Source: Eledone cirrhosa | Taxonomy: Eukaryota | Length of the DNA stretch: 64,000 nucleotides | Assembly: GCA_964016885.1 (NCBI GenBank) | Contig: OZ024747.1 | Span: forward strand, 44,950,001-45,014,000 | Reading direction: 5' to 3' | In this document: piece after piece, positions 4,740 through 55,419 of the stretch | Numbering within the stretch: position 1 is the first letter of the stretch | How the letters are laid out: the number at the start of each line of letters is the position of its first letter | Notes under the pieces: generated by a model | Seen by the model: only the letters and a program-made list of their open reading frames with translations | The model's database searches: none | What the model was told of the DNA's origin: nothing | Program-made: the position numbers and the translations under genes

Positions 4740-6800
<2,061 letters not shown>

Positions 6801-14061: not shown

Positions 14062-14170
<109 letters not shown>

Positions 14171-14181
14171 TATATATATAT

Positions 14182-29545: not shown

Positions 29546-29569
29546 TCGCATAACAAGAAAAAAAACAAG

Positions 29570-31958: not shown

Positions 31959-32511
31959 AATAATCAAATGGAAAGAAGCGCACCAGAATGGCTAATTTAA
32001 AAGCCTGTATTCCAACCTTCCAGAGGCCAGATTCATTCTTTCTTTCAAATTAAATCTATGTCCTCACTAGACACACTTAGACTCACACACACACACACAT
32101 ACATATATAGCACATGTTTTTCCCATTTTATTATATACATATTCGCACACACCTTTCATTACATCCCACACATACAAACATCCCACTAAGCACACTTACA
32201 TTCATGCACACACACATGCATACATCATACATTTCACAAAGCGCACGTTCAATATTTTAACATCTTTTCATTTCATTTAACTCAAATCTGCTTTCGAAAC
32301 AAACAAGACCATCCAATTGATCTTTTAAGTCTCTAATAGGGATACACCCTTGCTAATGGGTTTTTAAATCTGAAAATATTTGAGATTATCAAATTTGGTA
32401 ATTTTGTTATCTTACTTAGCAATCTTGATTTTCTTTCTTGTGCATTGTATGGTTTTCAAAATTATTAAAATTTTTGTTTCCTATTCAACAATGCTTCAAG
32501 CAAGCTACAAC

Positions 32512-32578
<67 letters not shown>

Positions 32579-32621
32579 TATAAGTATTAATAAAATAGAT
32601 GTTCTTTTGATCAATTACATT

Positions 32622-32672
32622 TCATTATACATATTTCGGATGTACAACAGTACGTCCTCATCAGAAAAAATA
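32622..32672 (-). ncRNA. Minimal type I hammerhead motif, copy 1
   Basis: CUGAUGA-GGAcGUAC uguu GUACaUCC-GAAA-UAUGUA-UA/AUGA. Stem I is weak. Confidence 0.65.
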
Positions 32673-32730
32673 TATTAATACATGACATACCCTGAGATAT
32701 TAAATGGTTAAGATTTAATCAATCTACCTT

Positions 32731-32781
32731 TCATTATAGATATTTCGGATGTACAACAGTACGTCCTCATCAGACAATATA
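32731..32781 (-). ncRNA. Minimal type I hammerhead motif, copy 2
   Basis: Same core and stem II as copy 1, offset by 109 bp. Stem III reads UAUCUAUA. Confidence 0.6.
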
Positions 32782-33007
32782 TAATGATACATGACATACC
32801 CTGAGATATTAAATGGTTAAGATTTTAATCAATCTACCTTGATTAAATATGTATAATAAAATGTAATTGATCAAAAGAACATCTATTTTATTAATACTTA
32901 TATTTTAATATTAATAACTCCTGAAAATTATTTCAGTTGAGTGCTTCCAATCTACTGTAAAACTCATTCTTTGACATAATCATCGAATATTGTTTAACAA
33001 CTTATTA

Positions 33008-33080
<73 letters not shown>

Positions 33081-33164
33081 GTAAAAAATTGAACGGGAAC
33101 AAAACAGAGAGGCAGTACGAGCAAAGGTTTATTAGTTACACGCTCTTGAGAGTGGGGTGGTGGT

Positions 33165-33205
33165 GGGGAACGACGTTTCGGGCATAAGCCCTTCTTCAGG
33201 TGAAA
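33165..33205 (-). ncRNA. Minimal PLE-type hammerhead motif
   Basis: cac-CUGAAGA-A-GGGC uuau GCCC-GAAA-CG-UC/GU, with a palindromic ACGU stem III. Stem I is short. Confidence 0.75.
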
Positions 33206-34714
33206 AGTGTGTGGGAAGAGAGTTCCAAGGGTGTGTAGGGGAGTGGTGGAGAGACATATAGAAAAAAAGGGGGTGGAGGAAACGGTACAAATGAAATTAA
33301 ATATAATAAAAATAAAGATAATAATAAACATGAAGTAAAACAGGTGGTGGAAGGGTGTGGGGCGTGTAGGGGTGGTGGCGGGTGGAGTGGGGAGAGGGAG
33401 GTGGGGTGTCCGAGCGGGGAGGGCTGAAGGTGGTGTGTGTGTGTAGGTGTACGTGTGTGTGTATGTGTGTGTGTATGTGAAAGTAAGAGTTGGGGGAAGA
33501 ACGGGGTTGCATGTTCAAGAAGAGGTGTGTGTGGGGTGGGGTGTAGGTCGGAGTGCGTGTGCGTGTGTGGATGAGGGGAGGAGAGGATTCCGGAGGCTGA
33601 GTGTGTAAATATGTGGTGGTACGCACGTGTGTGTGTGGTGTTTATGCGTGTTGTGGATGTAGGTGGCGTGAGGGAAAACATTTTTTTGAGTGTATGTCAG
33701 TGGGTGAGTCCTTAAGGTAGTTCGGTAGAGGATGTGGTGGAATGCTGCGTAATATCCTTGGGATGTGGTGGATTCTAGGGATCGATGTTCAATATGTGTA
33801 ATCCGTGAAGAGATTGGTCGGAAGCGGGGAGATGTGGGGTGCGCGCGCAACAGGAAGTGGTCAGAGGGTCAAGGCAGGAGGAGGATTGTGTGTCTGTGTG
33901 TGCGGGGAGGTGGTCAGAGATAAGGGCATAGCAGCAGTCAGGTAGAATGGTAAGTGAAGAAAGTCGGTGGGTCAGTGTGTGCGGAGGTGCGGTGGACAGG
34001 GGAGAGGATGGGTAGGTGTGAAAGTGGGAGCGGGGAGGGTGTGTGTGTGTATTAGTAGAGGTGTTAGTGGGATGTGTGTGTGTGTGAGAAAGGGTGTGGG
34101 TGGAGCGGGGAGAGAAGGGTGTAGGGGCCGGTGGAGGGAGTGTAGTGTACTGGTGTGTGTGTGCGTGTTTGGATGAGTGTGTGTGTGGTGAAGGGGGTGT
34201 TAGTGGGTGTTAGTATACTGGAGGTGGGGAAAGGGTTGAATGCGACTGTGAGTGGGGGTCAGTGGTTGTAGGGTGTGTAGAGTGGGTGGTGTAAGAGGGT
34301 GTGTGTGTTCGTGTGCGTAGGGTTGGGGGTGTTAGTGATGTTAGTTGCATGTAGAGTGGGTGGTGTAAGTGGGTGTGTGTGTTCGTGGGCGTGGGGTCGG
34401 GGGGTGTTAGTGATGTTAGTTGCGGGGTGGTGGGGTGGATGTGTGGGGGTGAGGGTTAGTGGTGGTAGTAGGGTGTGTGTTTAGTGTGAGCGCGTGTATA
34501 TATGTACCGGTGGGTGTGTGTGTAATAAGGAGAGGGGTGGAGAAGAAGGGAGGGTTGTTAGTCTGTTAGTTGGGGAAGGGTGGTCGGGTGTGGGGTGGAG
34601 GTGTTAGTATTGTTAGTTGTGGGGTGGGCGGTGAAAAGGAGGGGTGTGTTAGTTGTGTTAGTGGGGGATATGTGTGGGGTGGGGGTGGGGGTCGAATGCT
34701 AAAGGAATAAGGGT

Positions 34715-35280
34715 GGGGAGTTCAGGCCGGGGGAGTGTGGGTCTGTAGGGTGAAGATGGTTCGTTGTTCGACCCTGAGGAGAGTGGCGGGTGTTCCGTGG
34801 CATTGGAGTAGACCACAGACTGTGAGGTGGTGTGCGGAATGTCCAGGGGCACCAAAGTGGCGGGCAATGGGGGAACTACCACCGAGACGAATATCTCGGA
34901 GGTGTTCAGTAAACCGGTCCGCCAAGCAACGTCCAGTCTGTTCGACGTAGGTTGCGCTGCACGGAGTGCAGCGAAGTCCGTAGACTAGGTTGGACGAGGT
35001 GCAGCGGAAGGTATGCCAGACAGAGAGAGAGTGGCCGTTGGGACCCTAGAAGGTGGTGGTGTTGGTGATGTGGGGACAGGTGTTGCAGCGGGGCCTGGAA
35101 CAGGGAAGGGAACCGGTGGGGGGGGCGTGGGAGGGGGGAGCTGTGGACGAGGATGGTGCGGAGATTGCGTGCGCGTTTGAAGGAGGTGGGGCTGGGAAGA
35201 TGTGGGAGGTGGAGGGGTCGGACTGGAGGCGTCGGAAGAGGAGGAGGATGGTGCGATGGAGAGGTATGGTGGAGGGATAT
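34715..35280 (-). pseudogene. PLE linker, Cys-rich finger and GIY-YIG endonuclease
   Basis: FRRLQSDPSTSHIFPAPP...PCSRPRCNTCPHI...(TAG at 35046-35048)...FRCTSSNLVYGLRCTPCSATYVEQTGRCLADRFTEHLRDI...PIARHF...EQRTIFTLQT. Confidence 0.88.
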
Positions 35281-35378
35281 ATATATATATATATCATCAT
35301 CATCATCTTCGTTTAACGTCTATCTTCCACACTAGCATGGGTATATATATATATAAATAAATATATATATATATATAT

Positions 35379-35743
35379 AACCAAAGATTAATATGGTTCG
35401 TTGATTAATCAACAAATACAATTTTACAATAGATTAGAAGCACTCGACAAGATTTTCCTGGAGTATTTAATATTATTCAAAATGTTAATAAATGAAAAAT
35501 ATTCTCATAATCAAAATATATATTTTATTATACATATTTCAAAGGTACAATGGTGTTTAAGTATGTTTTCATCAGACTGCCAATACTGGAATTGAATAAT
35601 AAAAACCGTAGCGGTATGTCACATATCAAATCTTATATTTTGTCTGATGAAAACGTACTTAAACACCATTGTACGTTTGAAATATGTATAATAAAATATA
35701 TATTTTGATTATGAGAATATTTTTCATTTATTAACGTTTTGAA

Positions 35744-35750
<7 letters not shown>
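35379..35750. mobile_element. Non-coding palindromic hammerhead cassette in (TA)n
   Basis: ~109 bp inverted arms at 35469-35577 and 35642-35750, a 64 bp spacer, and a tail at 35379-35468 homologous to the reverse complement of 32911-32965. Confidence 0.85.
35634..35700 (+). ncRNA. Minimal type I hammerhead ribozyme
   Basis: Stem I UAUAUUUUGU/AUAAAAUAUA (10 bp), CUGAUGA at 35644-35650, stem II AAACGUAC/GUACGUUU (8 bp), GAAA at 35679-35682, and AUA cleavage predicted after 35690. Confidence 0.82.
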
Positions 35751-35826
<76 letters not shown>

Positions 35827-36095
35827 ATACTTGGGGAGGGTCATATTTGTGTAATATTGCCAGAATTAATAATAGAACACATTCACTACTTGGTTGGTTT
35901 TCGCTTTTCGCTTCTGTGTCTTTTATATCGGTAATCTAATTTATTCGGTCCTCAATGTTACCATTGACTGACCACCGGTCAAAAATAATTGTTTCTACTT
36001 TTGGCACAAGGCCAGCAATTACCCAGTACATTCAAAAATAATACAGATACAATATAGACACAAACACATATATATAGTTTATCATATATATAATT

Positions 36096-36137
<42 letters not shown>

Positions 36138-36253
36138 GATAGATTGATAGATAGATAGATTAAGTATTAAACTAACATATTTCTTCATCGTACAATGTCA
36201 TTTGGTTTGTTATTTCTGTTTATGTTTTGCATATATATATATATATATATATG

Positions 36254-36344
36254 CAGGGTGTCTCCCCCCCCCCAAAAAAAAAATGTATGCACATATTTAT
36301 TCGAATGCTGTTGAAGCGTGTATACACTTTCTTGAGACACCCTG
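36254..36344. mobile_element. Tc1/mariner-type MITE
   Basis: TIRs CAGGGTGTCTC..AAAA.TGTATGCAC and GTGTATACACTTTCTTGAGACACCCTG, in a TA context. Confidence 0.75.
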
Positions 36345-36380
36345 TATATATAAATATGTATACACATAAACACATGCAAT

Positions 36381-36770
36381 GTGGCACATGGCTTAGTGGT
36401 TAGAGCATTGGGCTTGCAATCGAAAGGTTGTGAGTTCCATTCTCAGATCGGGTGATGTGTTGTTTCCTTGAGCAAGACACTTTATTTCACATTGCTCCAG
36501 TTTTCTCAGCTGCAGAAATGAGATGATAGGGACTGGGCTCCATATCATTCCACTGCAAAGTGGTCGTGGAGGTGCCACGGCAAAAAAGCACCCAGCCCAC
36601 ACTGTAAAGTGGACGTGTTGGCGCCACGGAAAAAAAAGCACCCAGCACTCACTGTAAATGAGGTTGGTGTTAGGAAGGGCATCCAGCTGTAGAAATCAAG
36701 CCAGAATCTGTTCCCGTCCCACCCTTGCAAGCAGGGAAAAAGCGGACGTAAAATGATGATGATGATGATG
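36381..36770 (+). mobile_element. SINE family 2 copy (long form)
   Basis: tRNA head, CORE-like block, duplicated AAAAGCACCCAGC..ACTGTAAA block and (GAT)n tail. Confidence 0.9.
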
Positions 36771-37194
36771 AATGCATTAACAGCTTTGCATATAACGTTT
36801 TTAGCAATACAAATGAATACATATAACTGCTATGTATACGCGTATGCTGTTGGATATTGGCAAGAGAGAAAGAGAGAGGGAGAGAGAGAAAGAGAGAGAG
36901 GGAGAGATAGTAAAATAAAATAAAAAATTAGCTGACATAATACATTTCCTGGATATGTGAGATTTCCTGTGATGAATTCAAGTAGGGATGCTGTATAACA
37001 GCTTTTATAATCAAACCATCGCCTTATTGCAATGTTGCTTCTCTCACCTTCCCTTGTTCTCCATGTCTCATGCATGTATGCACACACACACACGCACATG
37101 CACATGCACATGCACATGCACATGCATAAACACAGACATACAAATGTATACAAACACACATATGTATATGTACACAACACAAACATATATAGAT

Positions 37195-37742
37195 CTGTAT
37201 CTACATATGTACATATATATGTATCTATATATGTACATATATATGTATCTATATATGTACAGATATAGATACATATATATATGTACATATATAGATACAT
37301 ATATATGTATATATATATGTATCTATATATGTACATATATATGTACATATATATGTACATATATATGTATCTATATATGTATCTATATATGTACATATAT
37401 ATGTACATATATATGTATCTATATATGTACATATATATGTACATATATATGTACATATATATGTATCTATATAAAGATACTTATATATGCACATATATAT
37501 GTACATATATAGATACATATATAGATACATATATATGTACATATATATGTACATATATATGTACATATATAGATACATATATAGATTCATATATATGTAC
37601 ATATATATGTACATATATATGTACATATATATGTATCTATATATGTACATATATATGTATCTATATATGTACATATATATGCATACATATATATGTACAT
37701 ATATATGTATCTATATATGTACATATATATGCATACATATAT
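37195..37742. repeat. 12-bp-unit satellite (ATATATGTACAT, ATATATGTATCT, ATATAGATACAT)
   Basis: Directly visible. It explains the YICT and MYIY ORFs. Confidence 0.95.
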
Positions 37743-38062
37743 AAATGCTTGCAACAGTGAATTGGTGCAATTTCACACACATCTAGTCACACACACACAT
37801 ATATGAGCATCTTATGCACTTTAGTAAGGAAACTGTTTTCAAAATTGTGCACTCATCACATAACATAAATTGATATTTACATTTACATTCAACTCTGTTT
37901 GGATTTTTGTTGAGGATATACATTTATTTGTATGTACGTATGCATGCATGGATGACTGCCTGTGAGTGTCTACATATATGTAAACTTTATATATATATAT
38001 ATAATGAAGGAAATGTGGTAAGGAACCAGGTGGACCATAACGCACCAAAGTACTCAATACTT

Positions 38063-38104
<42 letters not shown>

Positions 38105-38144
38105 ATGTGTGTATGTATATATATATGTATATATATATATATAT

Positions 38145-38210
<66 letters not shown>

Positions 38211-38212
<2 letters not shown>

Positions 38213-38516
38213 AGGCACATGGCTTAGTGGTTAGAGCATTGGCCTCACAATCGAAAGGTTGTGAGTTCAAGTCTCAGACCGGCTGATGTGTTGTTTCCTT
38301 GAGCAAGACACTTTATTTCAGATTGCTCCAGTTTATTCAGCTGTAGAAATGAGATGATAGGGACTGGAGTCCCTATCATTCCACTGTAAAGTGGAATGAT
38401 AGGGACCCAGCACTCACTGTTAATAAGGTTAATGTTAGGAAGGGCATCCAGCTGTAGAAATCAAGCCAGAATCAGTTCCCGACCTACCCGCAAAATGATG
38501 ATGATGATGATGATGA
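38211..38516 (+). mobile_element. SINE family 2 copy inserted in (TA)n
   Basis: GGAGGCACATGGCTTAGTGG head and (GAT)n tail. Confidence 0.88.
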
Positions 38517-38555
38517 TATATATATATATACATGCATATACATATACTTACATGC

Positions 38556-40340
38556 ATCATCATCATCATCATCATCATCACCGTTTTACGTCCGTTCTTC
38601 CATGCTAGCATGGGTTAGACGGGTTATCCTGTTGCGGGCAATGTCTGGTCGGCTGACCATGCCTTGCTCATACAGGAACTGATTTTGGCTTGATTTCTAC
38701 AGCTGGATGTCCTTCCTGACACCAACCTCATTTACAGTGAGTGCTGGGTGCTTTTTTCCGTGGTGCCTACACGTCCACTTTACAGTGTGGGCTGGGTGCT
38801 TTTTTGTCGTGACAACTCCACAACCACCTTGTAGTGGGAGGGTGTGGGGGCATATTGTCTATATGCTTCAGCTTGTACCCATGGGAGGTCGGGTACTCTG
38901 TATAACTGCGTGACGCCAGAGTTCACGGTCATGTATCATCACCTTTGAGAGGTGCAACTGGGTAAGGTTGGCCCCTATCACCTCATCCCAGGTTTTCTTG
39001 GGTCTCCCCACTCCGCGGTTTCCATCGACTTCTACTGCTCTGCACCTTTTTATGCAGCTGTCATCCTTCATATGCATCACATGTCCATACCAATGCAATA
39101 TCCTCTCCTGCACACAGCATTTGATTCCTCTTATGCTCAGTCTCTCTCTCAATTCATTCATGCTTTGTCGTTCGCCTATATTACTATTACACATCCATCG
39201 GAGCATGCAGGCTTCGTTTCTTTCTAATCTACTTAAGTCTTCCATCTTCAGCGCCCAGGTCTCACTACCATGTAACATTGATGTTCGGATACACGCATCA
39301 TACAGTCTGCCTTTCATTTTTAGGGAGAAGCCTTTTGCAGCTAGCAGTAGCAGTAGTTCCCTGAACTTCTTCCATCCCGTTCTTATCCTAGTTATTTACT
39401 TTCTGAACACCCACCTCCACTGCTAATTCGGTCACCTAGGTAGCAGAAGCTGCCTACTGTTTCTACAGAGCCCTCCCAGAGATTGGTGGTACTTGTTTCC
39501 TGTGGCTGCTTGCTGCTTGCTGACTCAGCACAGCTGCTACATGTTAAGCCTACATTCTTAATTAAGCTTCCTGAGATTCCGCTACATCTCTTGTGTACCC
39601 ATTGTTTGCATTTGGGGCAGAGAATGGAGTTCCTACCTACACCTTTCCTACATACTGAGCAAGGCCATTTCCCTGGGGGGATCTGGGTTCAGTTTTCTCA
39701 TCTACTTACAAGGACCTTAGTCTTTGTCATGTTGACTTTGAGACCCTTTCTTTCTAGTCCCTGCTTCCAAGTTTGGAATTTCTTCTCTAGTTCTACCATA
39801 GATTCAGCTATAAGTGTGAGGTCATCTGCATACAGGAGGTCCCATGGGCATCCGGTCTTAAACTCCTCCGTTATTGCCTGCAGGACTATGATGAACAGGA
39901 GGGGGCTAAGAACAGAGCCCTGGTGGACCCCAACCTGTACGCTAAATTCCTCGCTATAATCATTGCTAATCCTAACTTTGCTGACTGCTCCCCTATACAT
40001 GGCTTGTACAGCTTTCACAAGCCATTCATCTACTCCTAGTTTTCTAAGAGCCCACCAGATTATAGCACGGGGAACTCTGTCAAAGGCTTTCTCAAGATCA
40101 ACGAATGCCAGGTAGAGCCGCTTACTTTTAGCTAGGTACTTTTCCTGTAACTGCCTCACAAGGAAGAGGGCATCAGTGGTGCCTCTTCCTGGTACAAACC
40201 CAAATTGCATCTCATTTAGTTTCACCCGGTCCCTAATCAATTGTGTTATAACTCTTTCTTTTACTTTCATGACCTGGTCCATCAGCTTCATACCTCTATA
40301 GTTTCCTCTATCGAGTGCATCACCTTTACCTTTGTAACAT
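38556..40340 (-). pseudogene. 5'-truncated RTE family A copy with frameshifts
   Basis: Highly similar to 15665-17440. ORFs 39698-40372 (YADD) and 38868-39317 belong to it. Confidence 0.95.
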
Positions 40341-41619
40341 ATATACACACACACATTAGATGGTATGTACATATAACAATATACACAGACCTATCCATGC
40401 TTCTAGAAACACGTACAAATAGAGGAAACATATAAACATATAGATAGAACTGTATTAATATACACACCTATATATATTTCAAAATAGGTGAGAAGAAATT
40501 ATGCACAAAGTAATTAGCAGAAAAATCCTCATCATTTAATGTCCATTTTCCCAGCTAGCAATGGCTGGAAGAGTCATCACACATCAATTCCATACTCAAC
40601 TGGTGACTCAGATCTTGCTTACATATAATCCTGTACTTTACACAGTGCACCATGAAATTTACAATGACACCAGCACTATGGAGGTCATCATATCTTTAAC
40701 ACAGCCGAAGCACCCTCTATATACTTTGCAGGCTCAAGACTGATATGGGGGCTAAACAAAAATAAAACTTCTACTTTAACATCAACTAGAATATAAACAA
40801 CATCTTCATCGTCAGTAAATTTGTCGATATGAGACTCTAGACAGTTGCTTGACTTGCTAGAAATAGAAATGAAACCAAGCCTAAATCACAATTTACCATC
40901 ATAAAATAGTAAAGCCATGTTAAACAATGTAGTTCTGAGTCCCCCAAAATATGATGCAATGGTCATCATTTGAGCATAAATCTAATGGTCAATGTTGATC
41001 CAGGACTAAACAACAACATCAACAAAAATAACATACAAAACATCATTATGAAATACAGATCAAGAAAATATTGCATTACATTTCTTGTGTATCTTATCTG
41101 AATATCTATCTAAATAAATTTGCTGCCAAATAATATATTTTAAAAGATTTTTCACACCACTTTACCTATTGATTTAAGTGCATTTTTATTTAAATGTAAG
41201 CAGAACATAGCACTCCACCCTAATAATGATTCAGACTTTTGAGATTTTAAAAGATATATCAACCCTTACATTACCATATTTCTAATGAAATACACTGCCT
41301 GTCTTTCAATTAATTTTGAAAATAAATAAACATATGGAAGAATTTAATAAAATAACTAAGTTTTTCATAAGTAGGCTGCTGTTTAAACATTATTTAAGTA
41401 AAATTTCTAAAATAAAATCAAGATGAAATGTTTTAATAGAAAGATAAACATTTTAAAATAAGCAGTTTTGTATCACAAGTAACAAAAGTACTGAATTTTG
41501 TTAGGTAGAGTGGAATAACTATATTACTTCAAAGCTGAATCTTCATAAGCTATTACTTCCATTCAGTCTCTGTTTCCATTCTTCAGGAGATTATGTATGT
41601 ATATATAATATATATATAT

Positions 41620-42577
41620 ATCATCATCATCATCATCATCATCAGGTTTAGCGTCCGTGTTCCACGCTTGCATGGGTTTGGACGGGGGTTTTCCCACTTG
41701 AGGCAAGAGTGGTTGTCTTGCTCGCATAGGACTGTCTGGCGGGTTTTCTACAGTTGGATGCCCTTCCTAACACCAACCACATTTACAGTGTGGGGCTGGG
41801 AGGTTTTTACCGTGTTGCCTACACGGCCACATTACAGCGTGGACTGTCTGGCGGGTTTTCTACAGCTGGATGCCATTCCTAACACCAACCACATTTACAG
41901 TGTGGGGCTGGGAGGTTTTTACCGTGTTGTCTACACGGCCATATTTACAGCGTGGACTGTGTGTTTTTTTTGTCGTGACACCTACACGATCTCATTTGTT
42001 TCGGCCTGGATGTTGTGGGACCAACATAACTTTACATTGAAAGGGGCGGTGTGGATGGGGTGGAGGTGGTGGGACGGGGGTGTGTTTTGATAGAGATGCC
42101 TACTGACTGTAGTAGGTTTTTACTTTGTATTTAGGTAAGGCGGGTCTTCTCTATTACTGAGTACCGCCAAAGGTCTCGGTCCAGTGACATTGTCTTGGAG
42201 AGGTGTAAGCGTGTGAGGTCGGAATTTATCAGCTCGTCCCATGTTTTTCTGGGTCTGCCTACTCCGTGGCTACCGTCTATCTTTATTGCCCTGCACTTTG
42301 TTATACAGCTGTCGTCTTTCATGCGCATCACGTGACCGTACCAACGTAGCCTTCTCTCGAGTAAACAACATCTGATCCCTCTTATTTCTAATTTTTTCCT
42401 TAGTTCGTTTATGCTTTGCCGTTCACGTATATTACTATTGCACATCCAGCGGAGCATGCAAGCTTCGTTCCTCTCTAGTCTGCGTATATCCTCTGCACAC
42501 AATGCCCAGGTCTCACTGCCATGCAGCATTGCTGTTCGTATGCAGGCATCGTATAACCTGCCTTTCATTTTTATATA

Positions 42578-42608
<31 letters not shown>

Positions 42609-43070
42609 CATCATCATCATCAACGTTTAACGTCTATCTTCCACGCTAGCATGGGTTTAGACGGGAATTGTCCTACTTGAGGCAAGATTGGTCGGGTGAC
42701 CGTGTCTTGCTCATATAAGGCTGTCTGGCAGGTTTTCTATGGCTGGATGCCCTTCCTAACACCAACCACATTTACAGTGTGGAACTGGGAGGTTTCTACC
42801 ATGTTACCTGCATGGCCACATTACAGTGTGGACTGTGTTTTTTTTTGTCGTGACACCTACACGACCTCATTTATTTTGGACTGGATGTTGTGGTACCAAC
42901 ATAACTTTACATCGAAAGGGTGGTGTTGGTGGGTGTGAGGGGTGGGGTGGAGTAGGGGTAGTGGGAAGGGGTATATATTTGGTTAAGAGGTGCCTACTGA
43001 CTGTAGGTTTCGGTTTGTACTGTATACTGCGTAGCGCCAAAGCTCTCGGTCCAGTGACATTGTCTTAGAG
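41620..43070 (-). mobile_element. Two tandem 5'-truncated RTE family C 3' ends (41620-42570 and 42608-43070), separated by (TA)n
   Basis: ORF 42131-42568 reads MKGRLYDAC...[11 protein letters not shown]. The two copies share a 3' UTR and (GAT)n tails, and the first has a ~113 bp internal duplication. Confidence 0.88.
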
Positions 43071-43113
43071 AGTGATACGTATATATATATATATTTATAT
43101 ATATACGTATCAC

Positions 43114-43151
<38 letters not shown>

Positions 43152-43307
43152 CGTATCACTGTATGTGTGTGTATATATATATATATATACACACACATAC
43201 AGTGATACGAAAAGATTTCCTGGTGGAAGTTGAGGTAAACTCTGTGTGTAGATCCAGTTTCAGAGTGAAATTTTAGAGATCCATGTAAGCGTTGATATAT
43301 ATATATG

Positions 43308-43460
43308 TATGTAAAAGGTAGACAGAAATAACAACACAATCAGTACAGTATATGGAGGGAATATATTAGTATAACACTTGGCTATTTCAAGCATTATATT
43401 AATATATTCCTTCCATATACTGTACCGATTATGCTGTTATTTCTGTTTACCTTTTACATA
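43308..43460. repeat. ~72 bp-arm hairpin with a ~7 nt loop
   Basis: TATGTAAAAGGTAGACAGAAATAAC... pairs with ...GTTATTTCTGTTTACCTTTTACATA. Confidence 0.9.
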
Positions 43461-43854
43461 GACACACACGCATGCGCGCGCAGCCACACTTATATATATG
43501 TATTTGCACACTTCAGTTATTAGCATATCTCTTACTATACATCATAATTAATTACCAACATGAGCACTAATTAAATGCAAATTATTATATCAGAATAATA
43601 CTATGAACAAATTGGTATCTACACCCATCAAATACATGTTTCCTTGTGGTTGATTGGATGATATACATATATTCTGATGAGGGTACAATAAAATCAGAAA
43701 ATTATTTAAAGATGTTCGTTATATTTTCAATTTACTGGAAAATTTGTATTTTACTGGGACAAATTAGGTATGTGTATATAATTATACACATTGGTGTAGT
43801 TTCATTACACACTATTTTTATACCCATATAACCTTATCATATATATATATATAC

Positions 43855-44300
43855 ACTCCACCCCAACATACACAATGGTTTTTTAAAACCCACAAGCATG
43901 TACACTTGCTCTCCCCTAGATTATCACACTTACATCCACGCATACACACACACCTAACCTTCTGCCAACTCCACTCGGACTCCATTTTTCCTCTCCCCCC
44001 CCACACCACATGCACCACCACACCCATTTCCTCTCAGATCCATACACCCCTCTCACTTTTCTATAACTTTTATTTTTCACTTCATGTTCCATTTTCAATT
44101 TATTTTTATTACGATTTATCTTGCGAACTCCCTCTTCACTCCTTCTTGGAGTTCCTCTCCCCCACTCTCCCTATGAAGGGCTTATGCCCGAAACGTTTCA
44201 ACCACACACCCCACTCTCACCAAGTATGAAACTAATAATATTTGTAACATTTAATCCTGCATTTGTCTGTTTTTTGTTTTCTGTTACTGCTATTCTGAAC
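43855..44300 (+). mobile_element. Diverged Neptune-like PLE 3' end with a damaged hammerhead
   Basis: CTATGAAGGGCTTATGCCCGAAACGTT at 44171-44197 (G5 missing) and CCCCACTCTCA..AACTAATAA are shared with 33075-33205. Flanked by (TA)n. Confidence 0.75.
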
Positions 44301-44310
44301 TATATATATC

Positions 44311-44386
<76 letters not shown>

Positions 44387-44390
<4 letters not shown>

Positions 44391-44961
44391 TGCAGACTGG
44401 CCAGGTTGCCAGGTTTCCCAATGGCAAGTGGAGCCCATTGTAATATTTTAAGGGCCAATGCTTTGCTTTCAAAAAATATCTTTAAAAAAAGTCTTAAAGA
44501 AAGAATAAAAACTTTTTAAAAATAAATAAAACAATCTATATATACACATGTACACATACACACACTCCCATATATATATATATATATATATATATATTGA
44601 GTGTGAAAGACCATCTTTGGATGGTTATATTTCGCAAAGTACTTTGTATTTTTTATTGGAGAAGGTAAGAACAGTCACTTCTATATATTCACAATTATTT
44701 AAAAATTCAATTATCACATTCTGTATTAACATTTAGTATTACTGTATACTGCCAGTAATATGTACAGTATATATACACTATAATTGGTAAAAGAAATACA
44801 CATTTTTCCTGCAAAAATTTGATTGTACTGTTTTGTTTTCACTTACGTATATTTTGAAAATATTATTTATTCATTATAAAAATTAAATGATAGCATTCTA
44901 TATGTGGGTGAGTCCCCTTTATCTCCTGGCAGCCAATATTTTCAGACCCAGTCTGCCACTG
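44387..44961. mobile_element. hAT-like MITE inserted in (TG)n
   Basis: TIRs CAGTTGCAGACTGG and CCAGTCTGCCACTG. Flanks are TGTGTGTG and TGTGTATG. Confidence 0.65.
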
Positions 44962-44975
44962 TGTGTATGTGTGTA

Positions 44976-45013
<38 letters not shown>

Positions 45014-45813
45014 CTTTCAATGAGTTAGGACTTAAGATCACTATAGCAACCAATCTGTCTTGCATATGAGATCATATGTAAGCAGAATGCAGACCTCCCT
45101 CCCCGGCCTGTTTGGAAGGTCACTAGCCCAATTTCAGTATTTCAGTACAAACTTGGCCTATCTAGACCCATCGAACCCTTGCTAGCAAGGAAAACGGATG
45201 TTAAACAATGATGATCATCAAATTTATACGTTTAGAAAATATATTTGCTTTTATAGTAACAAATTATTTTAACACATTTTTTGAAGGTTATATTTCCTTT
45301 AAATTTTTAAATATTTACAGAACTAGTTATGTTAGATCTTTAAGAAATTTAGCCTATAGGAACAAGAAATTGTATTTTCCTTTGTGATACAGTAATATTT
45401 TCTTTTAATCCTTTATGGACTTTTACCTCATACTTATATTTAAAAAAAATATAATAATAATTTTCTAAATAACGACGATTGAGGGAAAAAATAATTCCAA
45501 TATAAAAATGAATGATTTACACAAGTTTAATAAATATTAAATCTCAGAAAGAAATCAATTAAATCTTTATATATATATATATATATATTTCTTCTATGTA
45601 CTGTTGTTTGTTTTCTTACTTTTGTTATTACTTTTACACACATACACCCACATGCGCATGCACGCACACAATCTTTCTAAAATATATTTGTTTATTTATA
45701 TATTATAATCTCTGCTACATATTAGCAACATAAAGATGGGATCCCCACCTCCATACCTCTCAGAGTGCCTTTAAAGAATATTTTCTTTTCAGCATTCATA
45801 TTCTTTCTTTTTT

Positions 45814-45866
<53 letters not shown>

Positions 45867-46832
45867 ATATGTATGAATGTATGTATGTATGTATGTATGT
45901 ATATACATGCTTATACTTTTTTTAACACATTTCCTGTGTGCTCTGAACTGGCCATTCCTATGTTGTGTATCAGTTATTGGGACTCACCTATTTTGAAAAT
46001 ATGTTTGAATTTTCTTTTACTTCTATTTTATTATACACCTCTCCTAGCTGTTACTCTTTATTATCACTTCATCACATGAGAATTTAGTAATCTGTTTTAT
46101 ATTTTTATTACATTGAAGGTCAATGGTGTGTTATATATATTTTCCCCTTCTCTAATATTTATTTTAATAATCATAGTTATCATCAAGATCATTGAGATGG
46201 TGTGACTGAGTTGGTACTAGAAATTCTACCTGCTCAACAATCTTGAGTTCAAACCCTATGCAGGCATTTCATGATGTTCCTGGGTAGAAAAACCACTTTA
46301 TATTGTCTCTGTTCACCTATTGTTAAGAAATGGATTTGAGATCATGAAATAGACTGGCATCTTATTTGGAACAGTGTCAGGTTCAATTTATTCCATAGCT
46401 TAGAAATGTATAGGAGTTTTATTTACAAACCAATGAGGGAGTCTCTATGTAATTGCTGGACATAACAAAATTAGTAGTCAAATAATCACCACTAACTTTA
46501 AGAAGGAAGCATATATTACACAATATAGTACTAGATATATAAATAGGCAAGTTGGGAATGGTTGGAATGCTTTTGATCAAAGATCTGTTCTGCCAGAGTT
46601 GACTTCAGATTGAAAATCAACAGCACCTGATTCTCTCATCATCATCATCATCGTTATCTTCACTGGTACCAACACCACCTCCTTCTTACACTACCTTACA
46701 CCTGGCATAGATTCATTTCTTTACTAAGAAATCATACTTATTCTAAATGTTTGCTGGGATTTTGATATTTTTCCATTCCAGCCATTTTCTCTTGGTTTCA
46801 GTTTCTAGCAATATTACAATGTGTTTTCTATA

Positions 46833-47049
46833 TTAACCCTTTAGCATATATCTGGCCAGAATTCTCTCACCTCTTTCTGTTCAAAATGGCCATAACTGGC
46901 CACTCATACAGATATTGAGGTATTGTTTTCAGAATAAATAATATCAAAATCTCATAGATTCATTATTATGTAAGATAATTATGTGAGATAAAGCCTTTAC
47001 TCCAAAATACAAAAGTATATATAGATTAATGTAAATGCTAAAGGGTTAA
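46833..47049. mobile_element. piggyBac-like MITE family I
   Basis: TTAA|CCCTTTAGCAT...ATGCTAAAGGG|TTAA. Confidence 0.85.
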
Positions 47050-47461
47050 GGTGAATATGCACATTTCATTGTATTCATCTAGTATTTTACCCTCACATGA
47101 GAATCTGTAGTGACCTCGTCACTCAATATTGAAAGCAATGTTATTGATTTTAACAATTCACAAGAGAGGTAAGCAAATCACGATTAGTTGTAAATAGTAT
47201 GAAACTCAGAATTTCTATCATCATGCCAAGCTGTCAAACAAGCCTTGTGGTTTAATTACAAGGCCTAATTTTACAATGAAGCTAAATATATGTTTATTAA
47301 ATAGAAAAAAAGTCCATATAAATATATATATATAACACAAGCCGAAACTGATTGGTACCGCAGTCTCTATACCTATACTGCATCTCCCCATGCATTGAGT
47401 ACTCCCATGATTAATGGTCTCCCCAGTTTCGGCAGTGCAGACTCACTCTCTCTCTCTTCAT

Positions 47462-47502
<41 letters not shown>

Positions 47503-47964
47503 CATATCAACTAGAAATTGATTGACATATATATATATATATAAAATAAACATATGAAACAATCTCAGGGAATAATTTGTAAAAGTGTGTAAGCACACAT
47601 AGCTATGTAGGTAACTTATTAAAGTTTAACTAGAACTTTAAAAATGGATACTTTATAAATTGATTAATCTTCCTTGTATATATTTCATTAAAGAAATATA
47701 TTTCACCATTAATCGATCGGTAAACCACAGTAGCCAAGTCCCGGATTTTCAACAAGGGAGAAGATCTAACTATCTGAGTTTACACAGCAAATTTAAATCT
47801 ACAAATGACTAACAGCACGTCTTACAGTTTTTAAAAATACACACATCGTACCAGCTTCATCCCAGTGGCGTGAATAGGATTATCGACAACTAGAAATAGC
47901 AGCCAAGTCCTTTCAACTGAGTTAGCTCTACAATTAAGGGATCGTGTATATATCCAAAATTATA

Positions 47965-48037
47965 TTAAGAGTGTCTTGTCAGAGAGACATGCGCCATATC
48001 CACCGTAGAATATGTCTCTCTGACATGACACCCTTAA
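47965..48037. repeat. Short inverted repeat with TTAA ends (possible Kolobok-type micro-MITE)
   Basis: TTAAGAGTGTCTTGTCAGAGAGACAT pairs with ATGTCTCTCTGACATGACACCCTTAA. Confidence 0.6.
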
Positions 48038-48756
48038 GTTCATTTTGGATATATATATACATATATATTTATCATCACCATCATCACCATTTTACATTTA
48101 TTTTCCCTGTTTACATAGGTTAAGTTGCCATGTTCTGAAACTAGACAAGTCAGATGACTATGTCTTGCTTATATGTTCCATTTTGGCATGGTTTCTATGG
48201 CTGGAGGCCCTTTTTAATGCCAACCATTTCATGGCATATACCATCTGACACACACACAAACAAACACAGACACACACAAACAAACACACACACACATATA
48301 TATATATATGGAAAACAGTTTTTCCTTTATATTTTGTTATTAAAGAGGCAGCTATTTCAAGTTCCAATTTCTTTATTAAAACTTTCTCATAATTTCCTAA
48401 GTCCATAATTTAATCAACGTTTCCAGACCTTTACTTTCTCATCATCAAGAGTATTTTTGGTTTATTTTTACTGCCTCTTTTCGTGAAGTTTAATTCAGTT
48501 CTTACTTTGCTACCTTTCTATGGCTTTCTTTCCTGTGAGTGTCTGGAAGCATTAATTAAATTATGGTCTTAGGAACTTTGTCATTCTAAATGAACTGTAG
48601 AGGCCTTATTAGACAATGTTCTAATAAGAGAAACCAAAACTTGTCATATATATAAAAACCTGGCATTTCGAGCCACTTTTTCCCATAAAAAACAGAATTA
48701 ACATTCAAAGACCAACCAGATGTGAGAAAAACCACAGACCCTCCATCTCAATTCTA

Positions 48757-48792
48757 CTTTTGAAAAGCAGAAGAACTGTGAAACCGGTAAAG
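48757..48792 (+). ncRNA. Minimal hammerhead variant with a U3-A8 core
   Basis: CUU-UUGAAAA-GCAG aagaa CUGU-GAAA-CCGG-UA/AAG, with a palindromic ACCGGU stem III. Confidence 0.5.
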
Positions 48793-49052
48793 CAACCAAA
48801 TAAATATATATATTTAAAAAAAAAAAGACTCCAGTGGCATTTTCGATTTTACTTTTTTCCTTATACTTTCACTCGTGTAGGACATCTTGGTTATTTTTCA
48901 TTTTGTTAAAAAAAACCTCACTTTCTAATATATATATATATATATATGAATGTATGTATAGTATATTTGGCAATATACCGTATGTTTAATTAAAAACATT
49001 TTCAAGACCTTGCGCTATCATTTTAAAGTAGTGACTATGTCACTTACTTCTT

Positions 49053-49143
49053 TTTTCGGCAAAGGAAGGGAGAGAAGCTGACAGATTCTGTTTCACACTG
49101 CTGGTGTTCCTCAGAGCAACGTACTCCCCGCCTTTGCCGAAAA
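49053..49143 (-). ncRNA. Full-size type I hammerhead ribozyme
   Basis: UUUUCGGCAAAGG-C-GGGGAG-UAC-GUUGCU-CUGAGGA-ACAC cagca GUGU-GAAA-CAG aau CUG-UC/AGCUUC-U-CUCCCU-U-CCUUUGCCGAAAA. The core is complete, all three stems form, and the GUC site is at 49080. Confidence 0.88.
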
Positions 49144-49223
49144 TTATAGAGGCTGGATTATTATAGAATTCCAGTAATAATCAGGAACTGATTATACAGA
49201 GCGATTGACGGTCCAGCAAAAAT

Positions 49224-49365
49224 CTTCCTACTTTTCAAATGAAAGTAGTGAAAAATAGTGTATTAGTGATATTGTTTAAATAAGTTGTACTATTAACAAT
49301 TCTGCTTACATATTACTAAGTAGCTTTCCACTATTTTTCCCTACTTTCATTTGAAAAGTAGAAAG
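49224..49365. repeat. Inverted repeat with 37 bp arms
   Basis: CTTCCTACTTTTCAAATGAAAGTAGTGAAAAATAGTG pairs with CACTATTTTTCCCTACTTTCATTTGAAAAGTAGAAAG. Confidence 0.85.
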
Positions 49366-49922
49366 AAACCAAATCTTCTGAGAAATAAATATCACAATAC
49401 TAGACATTTAAACCCTCATTCAAATCTTTTGAATATAACCAGAGGATCTAGTTTCCATGTCAACACTTAATAGAAAGCTTAAACGAGGACTTAGTTTGTA
49501 ATGCAATCTTTATGTTACGAGTAACTTGTGAGAGATAAGATGAGATCTTGATTTGTGTATGCCCTGACAGTACTGGTTGTAGATGTGTGGCTACAGGACA
49601 CTTGGATGTATGTCATTCATAATTTTATTGTTTAAATTTTGTATGACCAGTAATTGTTTGTTAAACTTATGAGAACTTATCTTAGATCTAAGTAAAAGTG
49701 TGAGAAGATGTCATGTTATCTCACTTCAAGAGTTACTCATAAAATAAAGATCAAATTTCAAACTGGCAAAATCTCATTTAATCTTTGTGTTTTGTTTTGT
49801 ATGGACCTCAACACATATTAGGATCAGCAATTAAACTTATATATGCTTGGCTTGTATTTGGGCAATCATTAAATGTGTAGAGCAATCACAATGTTTATCT
49901 AATGTTTGAAGGCCTGTTTTGT

Positions 49923-50155
49923 TTAACCCTTTAGCATTTACATTACTCTTTATTTACTGTTGTATTTTCACAGTAAACACTTTAACATAATATCGAATCT
50001 AAGAGATTTTGATATTATTTATTTTGAGAACAATACCATTTATTTTGAGAACAATACCTTAACATAAGTATGAACAACTGGTCATGGCCAGTATGAACAG
50101 AAAGATGTGAGAGAATTCTGGACGGATATGGCCAGTTTAAATGCTAAAGGGTTAA
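49923..50155. mobile_element. piggyBac-like MITE family I
   Basis: TTAA|CCCTTTAGCATTTA...TAAATGCTAAAGGG|TTAA. Confidence 0.88.
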
Positions 50156-50199
50156 TCAAAATCTCAAGATGAAAGTCCATCTTGTCCAATCACAGTTGG

Positions 50200-50385
50200 T
50201 GTATAGACTGAGCCTTTTGTACAGGGAACGAATACCATTAGAGAGGTAGTGACCCTCTTGTATAGTGACTGAGCTCTTTGTGCAGGGACTGAGCCTCTTG
50301 TACAGATACTAAGCCCCTTGGGCAGAGACAGGGAGCTCCTTGTGTAGAGACTGAGCCACTGTGTGGAGAGTAAGCTGACTTGTAA
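50200..50385. repeat. Degenerate ~20 bp minisatellite (GTACAGGGACTGAGCCTCTT-like)
   Basis: GACTGAGC..CTTGT recurs about every 20 bp. Confidence 0.65.
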
Positions 50386-51291
50386 CACATGTCATTTACC
50401 TTCAGCTCTTTGGACACAATGGAATTTTGAGACATTTTATAGAAGGAAAATGCATCTAATGAGCTGTAAAATATGATATATCAAAATATAAGTATATGAT
50501 CATCATCATTTAACATTAAATTTCCCTATTAACAAGAGATGGACAAGTTGTCACAAACCAAGTCAGTGCTCAGTTAGAGCCTCTGATTATGCACTACGGA
50601 ATACACCGTGCATTTTATTGTGGCACCTGCAATAAGGGGTTTGTCATATCTTTGGCATGGTGAGACTTCTCTACCTTTTGCTTGGCAGGCTTTCTAAAAC
50701 TGCATGTTCTTCCTATCACTAACCAGTTTATAGAGTTACTGGGTACATTTTATAATTTCACCAACACTAGAGTGGTTGTCATGTTGTAATTGCATTGTCT
50801 TTTCACCGCTTTTGACATGTTTTCTTTTACGGCGAGAAGGCCTTCCTATTTCCAACCACATTACTGAGTGTGTTGGGACATTATATTGTAACACCAGCAC
50901 TAATGAGATTGTTAATCATTGACAGTCACAAAATGAACAAAAACAAAAATATAAAGAATGAGAGAACTCTTACAGGAATTGAAACCACATTCAGTAGTTT
51001 TAAGTCTAAAAAGCCCATTTTATATTTTCGTTCTCTTGTCATATTTGGAAGTACAATATTTGGTTTTAATGTAAAAACGTGTAAATGTATAAATGCAAAT
51101 ATAAAAAAATATTAGGTCAACAAGTAAGCTGTGTGCATATGCATGTGTATGTGTGTCTGTGTATTTGTTGTAAATTATTTCAATATGAAGTTTAGTATAC
51201 AAATATATTTATATGTCTGCACACTCACACACACATACATATGAATATACATACACATTCATACTGAAATATGTATGCATATATATATTTG

Positions 51292-51337
<46 letters not shown>

Positions 51338-51347
51338 TGAATATATA

Positions 51348-51520
51348 TCATCATCATCATTATCGTTTAACATCTATCTTCCACACTAGCATGGGTTTAG
51401 ACGAGAATTGTCCCACGTGAGGCAAGATTGGTTGTCTTGCTCGTATAGGACTGTCTGGCGGGTTTTCTATGGCTGGATGTCCTTCCTAACACCAACCACG
51501 TTTACAGTGTGGACTGGGAG
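51348..51520 (-). mobile_element. Short RTE family C 3' end
   Basis: Matches 42608-42790. Confidence 0.85.
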
Positions 51521-51719
51521 ATGTATTTAAGTATGTATTTAGAGTTAAATATTCTGTTGTGGTTGGCCGTGAAGAGGCTGCTGTAGTTTATTTATCAAAT
51601 ATTTCTTCATAGGAGCCTTTCTTCTTATAGCCTGGTCTAATTGATTTTTTATGTGGTTAATTATGCTAATTGGGAGAGGAAATAGTGTATATATTTTATC
51701 AAATGATTCTATGGACATA

Positions 51720-51883
51720 TTTTATGATATATATATACATATACATATATATATATACATATATATATATACATATATATATGATGATGGCTGCCCCCTC
51801 GTTATCGAGTATGGCCATTGCACGAGAAGAAAAAAATAAAAATAAAAATAAAAATAAAAAATAAATAAAATAAAATAAAATAA

Positions 51884-51922
<39 letters not shown>

Positions 51923-52178
51923 ACATATATATATATATATATATATATACATACATATATACATACACACATACATACACATACACACACATATATACAC
52001 ACACATACATTAATAACAATAATAATAATAATAATAATAATAGCAATAATAATAATAACGACAACAACAATAATAATATACATATACATATATATATACA
52101 CACACACGTACACACATAAGAATATCTACACACACACACACACGATAGCAACTAACAGTTCTGCGATCGAATATATAC

Positions 52179-52235
<57 letters not shown>

Positions 52236-53366
52236 CATATATATATACATATATATACATATATATATATACATATATATACATATATATACATATATAT
52301 ACATATATATACATATATATATACATATATATATAGATATATACATATATATATATACATATATATATACATATATATATATACATATTTATATGTATAT
52401 GTAGCAAGTTTAATACATATTCTATTTATGTATATACATTTGTATATGTCTATGATTTTAATTGTACATATGAGTGTACATGTATATGTGTATGTGTATG
52501 TATGTGTGTGTGTGTGTCTGAATGCATCTGTAGATTCACACAAATCTATATCATTGAACAGTCTCATTGATATAGTATTTGTCTATCATCATCATCATCA
52601 TAAATATTATTATTGTTGTTGATTTTGTTGTTGACATTTTAGTTATCACACACACTGCATGCATTATAGCCATCGCCATCAACATCCTGCTTACCACAAA
52701 CACCAACAGCCCCTCTGCTACTGCATCATTATTACCAAGGCAGTATCGGTAGAGGGTTGGACGCCATGCTTTCCAGCATAGTTACGTCCCTTTATGATCT
52801 GAGTTCAAATCCCGCCGAGGTTGACTTTGCCTTTCATCCTTACGGGGTCGATAAAATAAAGTACCAGTAATGCACTGGGATAATTGCTGGCCTTGTGCCA
52901 AAAAGTAGAAACAATTATTACCAAGGCCATGGATTGGCAGTATCGGTAGTGGATCGGACACCATGCTTTGACGCATAGAGTTACGGCCCTTGCCATTCTG
53001 AGTTCAAATCCTGCCGAGGTTAACTTTGCCTTTCATCCTTACCGGGTCGATAAAATAAAGTACCAGTAATGCACTGTGATAATTGCTGGCCTTGTGCCAA
53101 AAGTAGAAACAATTATTATCAATGCCATTACTATTGTCATTGTCACCACCATCAACATCAACATCAGCACTATCACTATCTTCATCATCATTAATCTTAC
53201 AGGTAGAAATTTAATTCTGTTATCAAGTACAACTTATTTTCCTTTTTTCTTTTATATATAAATTCTATGAATTTATATATATATTTATAACCCCCCACCC
53301 CCACCCCCACACACACATATGTCTGTATATATGTATGTATATATATATATATAATATGTATGTAAT

Positions 53367-53438
<72 letters not shown>

Positions 53439-53471
53439 TTTATATATACATATATCTATATATGTATATAA

Positions 53472-53503
<32 letters not shown>

Positions 53504-53575
53504 ATATATACATATATCTATATATGTATATAAATACATACATACATATTTATATATACACATCCTAACACATAC

Positions 53576-53628
<53 letters not shown>

Positions 53629-54278
53629 TATATTTCATGTTATCTTAATCTGTTTATACATAATGTATATATGACTTTTCTATCAGTTAATAAAATATCT
53701 TTGAAAACAAATTCATAAATGTTACAAAAAAGAGCAACAACATAAACAACAGTATTAATTCACTGATAAACATTATAATGTTGAAGAAATAATAAATATA
53801 CAGACAAAAAAAAACCTAAACATGGGGTGACAAAAATATAAATAAATAGAATAAAAATATATATATATATATAAAAATCATGTACAAAGTGAAAGTGAAA
53901 TCTTCCAAACGTCAGAATTAACAAACTAACAGGTGAAAATCAAACTTATCATAGTCTATTTCAATTCTAGTCTTAATGTTATTCACAGAATATATTTTAA
54001 AACTATTATTTTAGAATAAGCACATGATATCATATATATAATATAAATATTATGTTAACATTTTTATTTGTTTGTTTTTAGTTATATTTGTGTTTTATAT
54101 TTTATTATTATTATGTTATGTTCAGAGTATATTAAACATAATAATATTCTCGCATTTAATCCGCATAAAATGAACATAAATTAGAGACAGCAAAACAAAT
54201 ACCTTTTTCTCCCCCTCTCTCTTTCTCTCTCTATACATACACATAATGTATGTATATATGTATGTATGTATGTATGTA

Positions 54279-54312
<34 letters not shown>

Positions 54313-54462
54313 CTCCTTTGTATTCATTCCATTTATATATATATACTGTACCCATATATACCCATATATATATGTTTGTATATATATATATGTATATATA
54401 TATATGTATGTATGTATATATATGTATATATATGTATGTATAAATATGTATATATATATGTG

Positions 54463-54493
<31 letters not shown>

Positions 54494-54500
54494 ATTTACC
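51720..54500. repeat. Dense microsatellite field: (TA)n, (ATATATATAC)n, (AAAAT)n, (AAT)n, (CA)n
   Basis: Directly visible. It is the source of the YIYI ORFs. Confidence 0.9.
52736..53118 (+). mobile_element. Head-to-tail dimer of SINE family 1
   Basis: Two consecutive units, each preceded by TTATTACCAAGGC. Confidence 0.9.
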
Positions 54501-54803
54501 AAATTATATTTTATATCATTATATTCTTTTGTTACTTTTTTTTATTGTAGAATTTTTATTTGTTCATTTTATTTGTGTATGTGTGTCTGCATGATTTTGT
54601 TGTTGCTGTATCAATATTTAAGAAATATCTATGAGTTAAATTGAATAAACAATGATGTGTGTATTGAGTTAGAATTTGTTGCTATAGAGCACATAAAATT
54701 TTATAGTTTGTACGCAGGTAAATATATATATATATATATAAATATATATATATAAAATAATTAAGTCAAATATTTAAAATTTGGCTTCGTTTATTAAAGA
54801 TAT

Positions 54804-54858
54804 ACTGCTATATATATTTCGGTGACAGCCATCATTGGCTGTGTCCTCTTCAGGCAGT
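54804..54858 (-). ncRNA. Minimal type I hammerhead (left arm)
   Basis: ACUGC-CUGAAGA-GGacACAGCC aaugau GGCUGUcaCC-GAAA-UAUAUA-UA/GCAGU. Confidence 0.8.
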
Positions 54859-55190
54859 CCGAATTGGTGTGGTAGAGATGGGTACACATGTTGTTGAATT
54901 GTTTTACTCCGTCAATGCTCTGATATGTCCAGCTCCTGGTTGGCTTGTTATTTCTCTGAGGAACTGGAATCATATGAATTCGAACAAATGAATTTCGGCG
55001 TCATAGGACACTCTCTCCTCCAATTGGTCAGTTGTGAGAATGTTCCTAACCGAAATTCGTTTGTCGAATTCATATGATTCCAGTTCCTCAGAGAAATAAC
55101 AACCCAACCAGGAGCTGGACATATCGATGTATTGACGGAGTAAAACACACTTCAACAACATGTTTACTTGTCTTTCCTACACCAATTCGG

Positions 55191-55245
55191 ACTGCCTGAA
55201 GAGGTCACAGCCAATGAAGGTTGTCACCGAAATATATATAGCAGT
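55191..55245 (+). ncRNA. Minimal type I hammerhead (right arm)
   Basis: ACUGC-CUGAAGA-GGUcACAGCC aaugaa GGUUGUcACC-GAAA-UAUAUA-UA/GCAGU, with cleavage predicted after 55240. Confidence 0.85.
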
Positions 55246-55382
55246 ATATCTTTAATAAACGAAGCCAAATTTTAAATATTTGACTTAATTATTTTACATT
55301 ACTCCGGAGTAAACAAACCAACCTACATAGTTCGCCAAGTGCTCCATTCTGCATACTGAGGTATCGATAAACAACCAACATA

Positions 55383-55419
<37 letters not shown>

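Follow-up and report, generated by a model that had tools for sequence, protein, structure and literature searches.

The question raised by this locus is whether a short hairpin carrying hammerhead ribozymes moves through a genome as a unit, or whether it is what another element leaves behind on integration. In 64,000 nucleotides of the Eledone cirrhosa genome (GenBank assembly GCA_964016885.1, contig OZ024747.1, positions 44,950,001 to 45,014,000 of the forward strand; this whole stretch is the window), three fold-back cassettes with hammerhead ribozymes lie between runs of (TA)n. A preliminary description had suggested either an undescribed retrozyme-like system or abortive insertions of Penelope-like elements (PLEs). 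Our analysis favours the PLEs: the cassettes are probably strongly 5'-truncated insertions that come from two or three related PLE families with an endonuclease, and we infer that the hairpin is an integration scar and not a mobile entity.

All three cassettes were confirmed, the first (c1) at 32574-33009 (+), the second (c2) at 35380-35750 (-) and the third (c3) at 54753-55385 (+), with the strand given such that the tail lies at the 3' end. The order of parts is the same in all of them: (TA)n, an inverted copy, a direct copy head-to-head with it, a one-sided tail of 85-93 nucleotides (nt) and again (TA)n. The arms pair in 66 of 67 columns in c1, 110 of 114 in c2 and 245 of 270 in c3, and every tail is found at one end only, outside the inverted repeat. 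The shared plan that had been proposed for the cassettes is borne out. In c1 the inverted tail-less copy (32574-32840, -) meets the tail-side arm (32845-32911, +) at a fold-back junction with a 9-bp inverted repeat (32824-32847), and the tail follows at 32912-33009 (+). The tail of c2 is located at 35380-35468 (-) and its tail-side arm at 35464-35577 (-); the centre (35578-35641, +) prolongs the inverted copy in the upstream direction, shows partial homology to the upstream sequence of c1 and leads into the inverted tail-less arm (35642-35750, +). In c3 the inverted tail-less copy (54753-55047, -) pairs to about 54997 and holds family sequence to about 55047, the tail-side arm occupies 55050-55296 (+) and the tail 55297-55385 (+).

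The claimed (TA)n flanks were found as well. Tracts lie at 32518-32573 and 33010-33073 on the left and right of c1, at 35342-35378 at the tail end of c2 and 35750-35821 on its right, and at 54722-54753 and 55386-55417 around c3. All six cassette ends adjoin (TA)n, whereas positions within 10 bp of a tract make up 4.5% of the window, with the reservation that c1 and c2 may share one old tract and that their ends are then not fully independent. Any target-site duplication would be hidden within the (TA)n. The start of the tail-side arm differs between the cassettes. It lies inside the ribozyme GAAA in c1, 2 nt before the CUGAUGA core in c2 and about 140 nt upstream of the ribozyme in c3, and relative to the ribozyme the starts in c1 and c2 are about 35 nt apart.

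Whether the hairpin is a unit can be judged from other copies. Public sequencing runs were queried with c3 plus its flank, which covers one of the three cassettes, and 4 of the 24 runs listed, each of them a set of contigs, were compared with it at 80% likeness; two of these (X1 and X2) come from one sample, and organisms D-O, which had small word shares, were left aside. Contigs of the c3 family numbered 2975 and 3264 in the two runs of this sample, and 24 and 28 in two other organisms. The flank had a summed contig depth of 12.5 (X1), whereas values on the arms and tail ranged from thousands to hundreds of thousands; this measure is no copy number and, for technical reasons, changes about fivefold along the arm. 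The c3 family is clearly large. Loose contig ends cluster at the end of the arm (55296; 32 and 39 contigs) and at the end of the tail (55386; 32 and 31), and at both c3 termini they run on as TA-rich sequence (consensus agreement 0.56-0.63).

The centre of the hairpin behaves differently from its outer ends. At 55063, just inside the c3 centre, the depth was 54.8 and 37.5, and a letter absent from c3 accounted for 33.9 and 29.9 of this, while at the mirror position 54989 it was 17,566 and 15,699. The hairpin centre of c3 itself is near single-copy. Arm-to-arm joints made up 9 of the 15 joints listed (41 in all) and fell at six places, and a separate table adds five more, so that 11 other centre positions are present among the contigs. 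Four of the nine joints lie at an internal near-palindrome around CATATG (55066-55080, +; mirror at about 54970-54980), and in organism C a loose end folds into a hairpin at this same palindrome. Because the c3 centre is near single-copy and the arms are joined elsewhere in other contigs, the c3 hairpin fails the test for a mobile whole that the preliminary description had set. The independently mobile hairpin of the preliminary description was therefore not borne out for c3: the comparison of centres across copies, which it had proposed, returned no shared centre, but variable centres with a hot spot at the palindrome. Its other suggestion, abortive PLE insertions that consist of terminal repeat sequence only, is supported, since the outer ends of c3 recur and the centre does not. 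An undescribed retrozyme-like unit does not hold for c3, as other copies have other centres.

The cassette plan is already described (Arkhipova 2013, Cervera 2014, Craig 2021), and an inverted 5'-truncated copy together with a one-sided tail is reported for PLEs in PMC8557442 and PMC3846280. PLEs with a C-terminal endonuclease (Penelope/Poseidon, Neptune, Nematis and Hydra), with their pseudo-long terminal repeat (pLTR), inverted copy and tail, have the same head-to-head copy, one-sided tail, hammerhead in the terminal repeat, palindromes at the inverted junctions (PMC3846280) and targeting of (TA)n (PMC8557442). The cassettes differ from the insertions presented there in that no open reading frame (ORF) remains. 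In Schistosoma, pairs of minimal hammerheads on opposite strands, 100-700 bp apart, were interpreted as probable truncated PLEs (PMC4209133); these share the long stem II and the short palindromic stem III with our cassettes, which differ from them in the AUA triplet, an AU-only stem III and the closure of stem II by A-U in c2. Hydra-clade PLEs, including Hydra-1_Obim, likewise have a hammerhead near the 3' end, a preference for (TA)n and a cephalopod host, but the hammerheads given in the PMC8557442 supplement mostly have a stem III of 3-4 bp, an AC start and a GU end, and the Hydra-1_Obim motif gave no match. The cassettes are abundant and are explained by a known class, namely PLE insertions. 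PLEs amount to 6.83% of the O. vulgaris genome, with 190 families (PMC13282606). A remnant of a PLE with C-terminal endonuclease is located in the same TA tract as c1, which we count in favour of truncated PLE insertions.

In such an insertion, the GIY-YIG endonuclease of the element would nick both strands of a (TA)n tract, and reverse transcription would initiate at two fixed sites, the end of the tail and the end of the arm, which are separated by about 90 nt. Both cDNAs would end early and might then be joined, most easily at the internal palindrome; as both would be antisense, they could anneal only at palindromes. The most likely template is RNA from a longer PLE that contains an ORF. 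A PLE protein has been reported to nick and extend both strands of AT-rich DNA, the tail being the gap between two start sites of the reverse transcriptase (RT), and in the anole element studied there the ribozyme was dispensable for insertion in vitro (PMC11167929). In all three cassettes the tail-less inverted copy extends further upstream than the tail-bearing copy, which is not predicted by a simple fold-back of the cDNA from the tail end but is permitted by two separately primed cDNAs. Self-priming has been proposed for PLE inverted ends as an alternative to twin cDNAs (PMC3846280), and the question of how PLEs build these ends is described as unresolved in PMC8557442. With a large family whose tail is long, the formation of inverted ends becomes countable.

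Several observations weigh against truncated PLE insertions. No ORF for an RT or endonuclease was linked to the cassette termini, the longest stop-free frames being 38, 67 and 76 amino acids. The tails of 85-93 nt are two to three times longer than the published one-sided tails of 30-40 bp (PMC8557442), and the hammerhead of the neighbouring Neptune-like PLE remnant is different. The cassette ends had no match among the places listed from the Craig 2021 supplement (PMC8557442; 4 of 10 for GAGTGCT). Between the arms of c3, none of the 19 differences lies within the outer 70 bp and all are located further in (p=0.002, post hoc), which could be explained by gene conversion or by two templates. 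Of the nine arm-to-arm joints, only two have a side of at least 30 nt, and joints in contigs of 80% likeness can arise from repeats. One loose end in organism C holds, beyond 55047, the opening letters of the c3 direct arm, which hints at a similar centre. Furthermore, upstream of the palindrome the summed depth drops by a factor of about ten: it is 41,000 plus 117,000 just inside the palindrome and 18,500, 7,400 and 2,100 in the bins that follow, a profile that agrees equally well with a short template and with truncation. No contig bridged c3 and its left flank, and the X2 flank was nearly uncovered; such gaps are uninformative.

The depth fall leads to the explanation that survives best beside the truncated insertions. 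It might be possible, although we consider it doubtful, that a short RNA of about 320 nt, non-autonomous and made up of palindrome, hammerhead, arm and tail, served as template and used the enzyme of a PLE; this would be a parasite of PLEs comparable to a short interspersed element (SINE), with the hairpin formed anew at each insertion. We give similarly limited credence to a high-copy form of the same ORF-less parasite, in which the long structured tail (about 90 nt) would be primed at both ends and two copies joined at the 5' palindrome, such that nearly every insertion would be a hairpin. Besides the depth profile, 3 of the 16 listed pieces from X1 and X2 start at 55071, the palindrome is the most frequented site of the joints given above, and no ORF was found in the cassettes. 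Non-autonomous, pLTR-forming PLE derivatives such as MRC1 are known (PMC8557442); MRC1 and other non-autonomous Chlamys PLEs resemble the cassettes as ORF-less derivatives, but they are head-to-tail multimers in algae and most of the Chlamys elements have no hammerheads. However, family sequence continues at least 70 nt past the palindrome at depths hundreds of times that of the flank, some pieces reaching past 55040-55047, and the technical variation of the depth along the arm applies to this profile too. Strong 5' truncation is moreover normal for PLEs (PMC8557442). If a short ORF-less parasite were indeed the source, thousands of its junctions would be available as a natural data set on whether PLE integration proceeds by twin priming or by self-priming.

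Transcription and movement of the whole hairpin cassette, or of a palindrome-centred subfamily, appears improbable. Joints of 54974-54977 to 55070-55072 were present in both runs, one of them at depths of 88.7 and 84.4 (about seven times the flank), the organism C hairpin uses the same palindrome, and perfect hairpins are under-reported in contigs. Against this, the joints at the hot spot are not identical but vary by a few bases, quite apart from the near single-copy centre of c3 and the 11 other centre positions, and palindromic junctions are expected from integration (PMC3846280). In addition, a duplex of 250 bp would, according to its predicted fold, sequester the ribozyme.

Still less probable is that the cassettes are non-LTR (long terminal repeat) retrozymes spreading through circular RNA, with a tandem in c1 as rolling-circle product. 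The inverted copy of c1 contains 2.2 units of a 109-bp tandem with two complete hammerheads, which is near the working definition given in Li 2026, and the cassettes share with retrozymes the non-coding nature, a type I hammerhead and the derivation from pLTRs. Retrozymes are however defined by direct tandem arrays and circular RNA (PMC7229834; bioRxiv 10.64898/2026.07.22.740005), whereas the cassettes are mainly inverted and have a tail. No direct tandem array of hammerhead-bearing units in the size range of 150-450 bp (PMC7229834) was found: neither c2 nor c3 has a tandem, and the c1 unit is below this range. The ribozymes belong to the minimal PLE type rather than to that of canonical retrozymes, and the duplication in c1 can be explained by slippage, given the internal direct repeat around the ends of the unit. 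Least probable are miniature inverted-repeat transposable elements (MITEs) or foldback DNA transposons that target TA, for which the long inverted arms, the TA flanks and the lack of an ORF speak, but which are largely refuted by the conserved tail outside the repeat on one side only and are also disfavoured by the variable centres and the covarying ribozyme within the arms.

The tails of the cassettes had been claimed to be related. For c1 and c2 this is clear: they are about 72% alike across arm and tail, and the alignment of their tails beats all of 2000 shuffles. The c3 tail could not be linked to them by local alignment, where 534 (against c1) and 248 (against c2) of 2000 shuffles scored as high. 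An anchored test with two motifs did connect it with c1 and c2 (2 of 20,000 shuffles, post hoc), and the spacing is common to all three, with 61, 64 and 60 nt from the cleavage site to ACTCC and 93, 85 and 85 nt from ACTCC to (TA)n in c1, c2 and c3, respectively. Several positions of the c3 tail are unlike the family majority. About 96% of the public contig depth has T at 55335 and G at 55337, and with these letters the majority of the c3 family contains the 10-mer GTCGAGTGCT, which is also present in c2. Owing to the common spacing, the anchored test and these majority letters, the shared tail holds for c3, which is a distant relative. The ACTCC of c1 starts at 32917, not at 32918 where the tail had been placed. 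A stem-loop of the form ACTC...GAGT opens the tails of c1 (32917-32943) and c2 (35441-35464), with different inner pairs, and is a candidate RT start signal. The tails were also considered as starts of ORFs and rejected, as they have no long open frame.

In the literature covered, no description of a c3-type family or of a tail of 85-93 nt was found, Repbase, Dfam and the O. vulgaris library being outside this search and possibly holding the family. Octopus Naiad and Hydra families are listed in PMC8557442; among those compared, none matched the cassette ends, and the window lacks three short motifs taken from published ends of octopus Naiad and Hydra elements.

The cassettes contain six CUGANGA...GAAA motifs, all with a stem III of 2 bp, a 4-nt AU-rich loop and an AUA site, which agrees with the AU-rich near-palindromic stem III and the AUA site claimed before. 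They are predicted to be minimal type I hammerheads in the terminal repeat. In c1, the outer one lies at 32622-32668 (-; core from 32664, stem II with 7 of 8 pairs) and the inner one at 32731-32777 (-). The inverted copy of c2 carries an intact hammerhead at 35634-35700 (+; stem I 10 bp, stem II 8 bp), while that in the tail-side arm is damaged, with two mismatches in stem II and the 5' strand of stem I lost. The c3 hammerheads are located at 54804-54858 (-) in the inverted copy and at 55191-55245 (+) in the direct copy, the latter with 5 bp in stem I and 9 of 10 pairs in stem II. Hammerheads had been placed within the arms or at their inner end. As presence of the motif this is correct, but both complete ribozymes of c1 lie in the inverted part, in the tandem, and of the ribozyme its tail-side arm retains no more than the terminal AAA together with stem III and the cleavage site.

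A descriptor tuned on the cassette motifs gave four matches in the window and none in each of 30 shuffles. Across the six motifs, which represent only three independent lineages and from which the structure itself was drawn, 90% of the cells are paired, against at most 46% in slid controls, and both sides have changed in 6 of 10 pairs. No hammerhead model of Rfam matched the cassettes, even at E<=10, while Rfam microRNA models gave sub-threshold matches; such cassettes are easily mislabelled as MITEs or microRNA hairpins in annotation. Metagenome scans with the c1/c2 tail pattern and with the c3 ribozyme pattern returned no loci. A generic ribozyme pattern gave 11 loci on viral contigs; stem II had at most 4 of 6 pairs in any of them, and they were rejected as chance matches.

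A further PLE remnant, 5'-truncated and separate from the cassettes, occupies 33080-35280 (-) between c1 and c2 and ends in the (TA)n tract at 33010-33073, common to it and c1. It contains a CxxxxCxxC linker, its own hammerhead at about 33170-33200 and a broken GIY-YIG domain at about 34730-35115, and its 3' sequence is AC-rich for about 1.5 kb. We read it as Neptune-like from the linker motif as described in PMC8557442; the fragment itself had no Pfam match and no match in a word-index search, and was placed through homologues. As a parent of the cassettes it was rejected, since ribozyme and 3' end are different. The same Neptune-like family has left a related 3' end at 43830-44320 (+), which also ends in (TA)n and whose hammerhead core is damaged. 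Further fold-backs without hammerhead core lie at 17515-17580, 43308-43460, 47954-48048 and 49223-49366, at least two of them directly beside TA runs; these are possibly scars of other PLEs or MITEs.

Other repeats in the window include a 12-bp palindromic minisatellite of 44 copies (37205-37743), which was sub-threshold on several microRNA models. An uninterrupted frame of 1024 amino acids at 14062-17136 (+) belongs to an RTE-like long interspersed element, in which AP endonuclease and RT are followed by a PHD finger; decayed copies of it were found at about 29500-31960, 38840-40390 and 42130-42600. A dispersed SINE-like family, presumably an octopus SINE, is located at 5100-6800, 11000-11200, 52739-53128, 58570-60350 and at other places, with a 199-bp tandem pair at 52739-53128.

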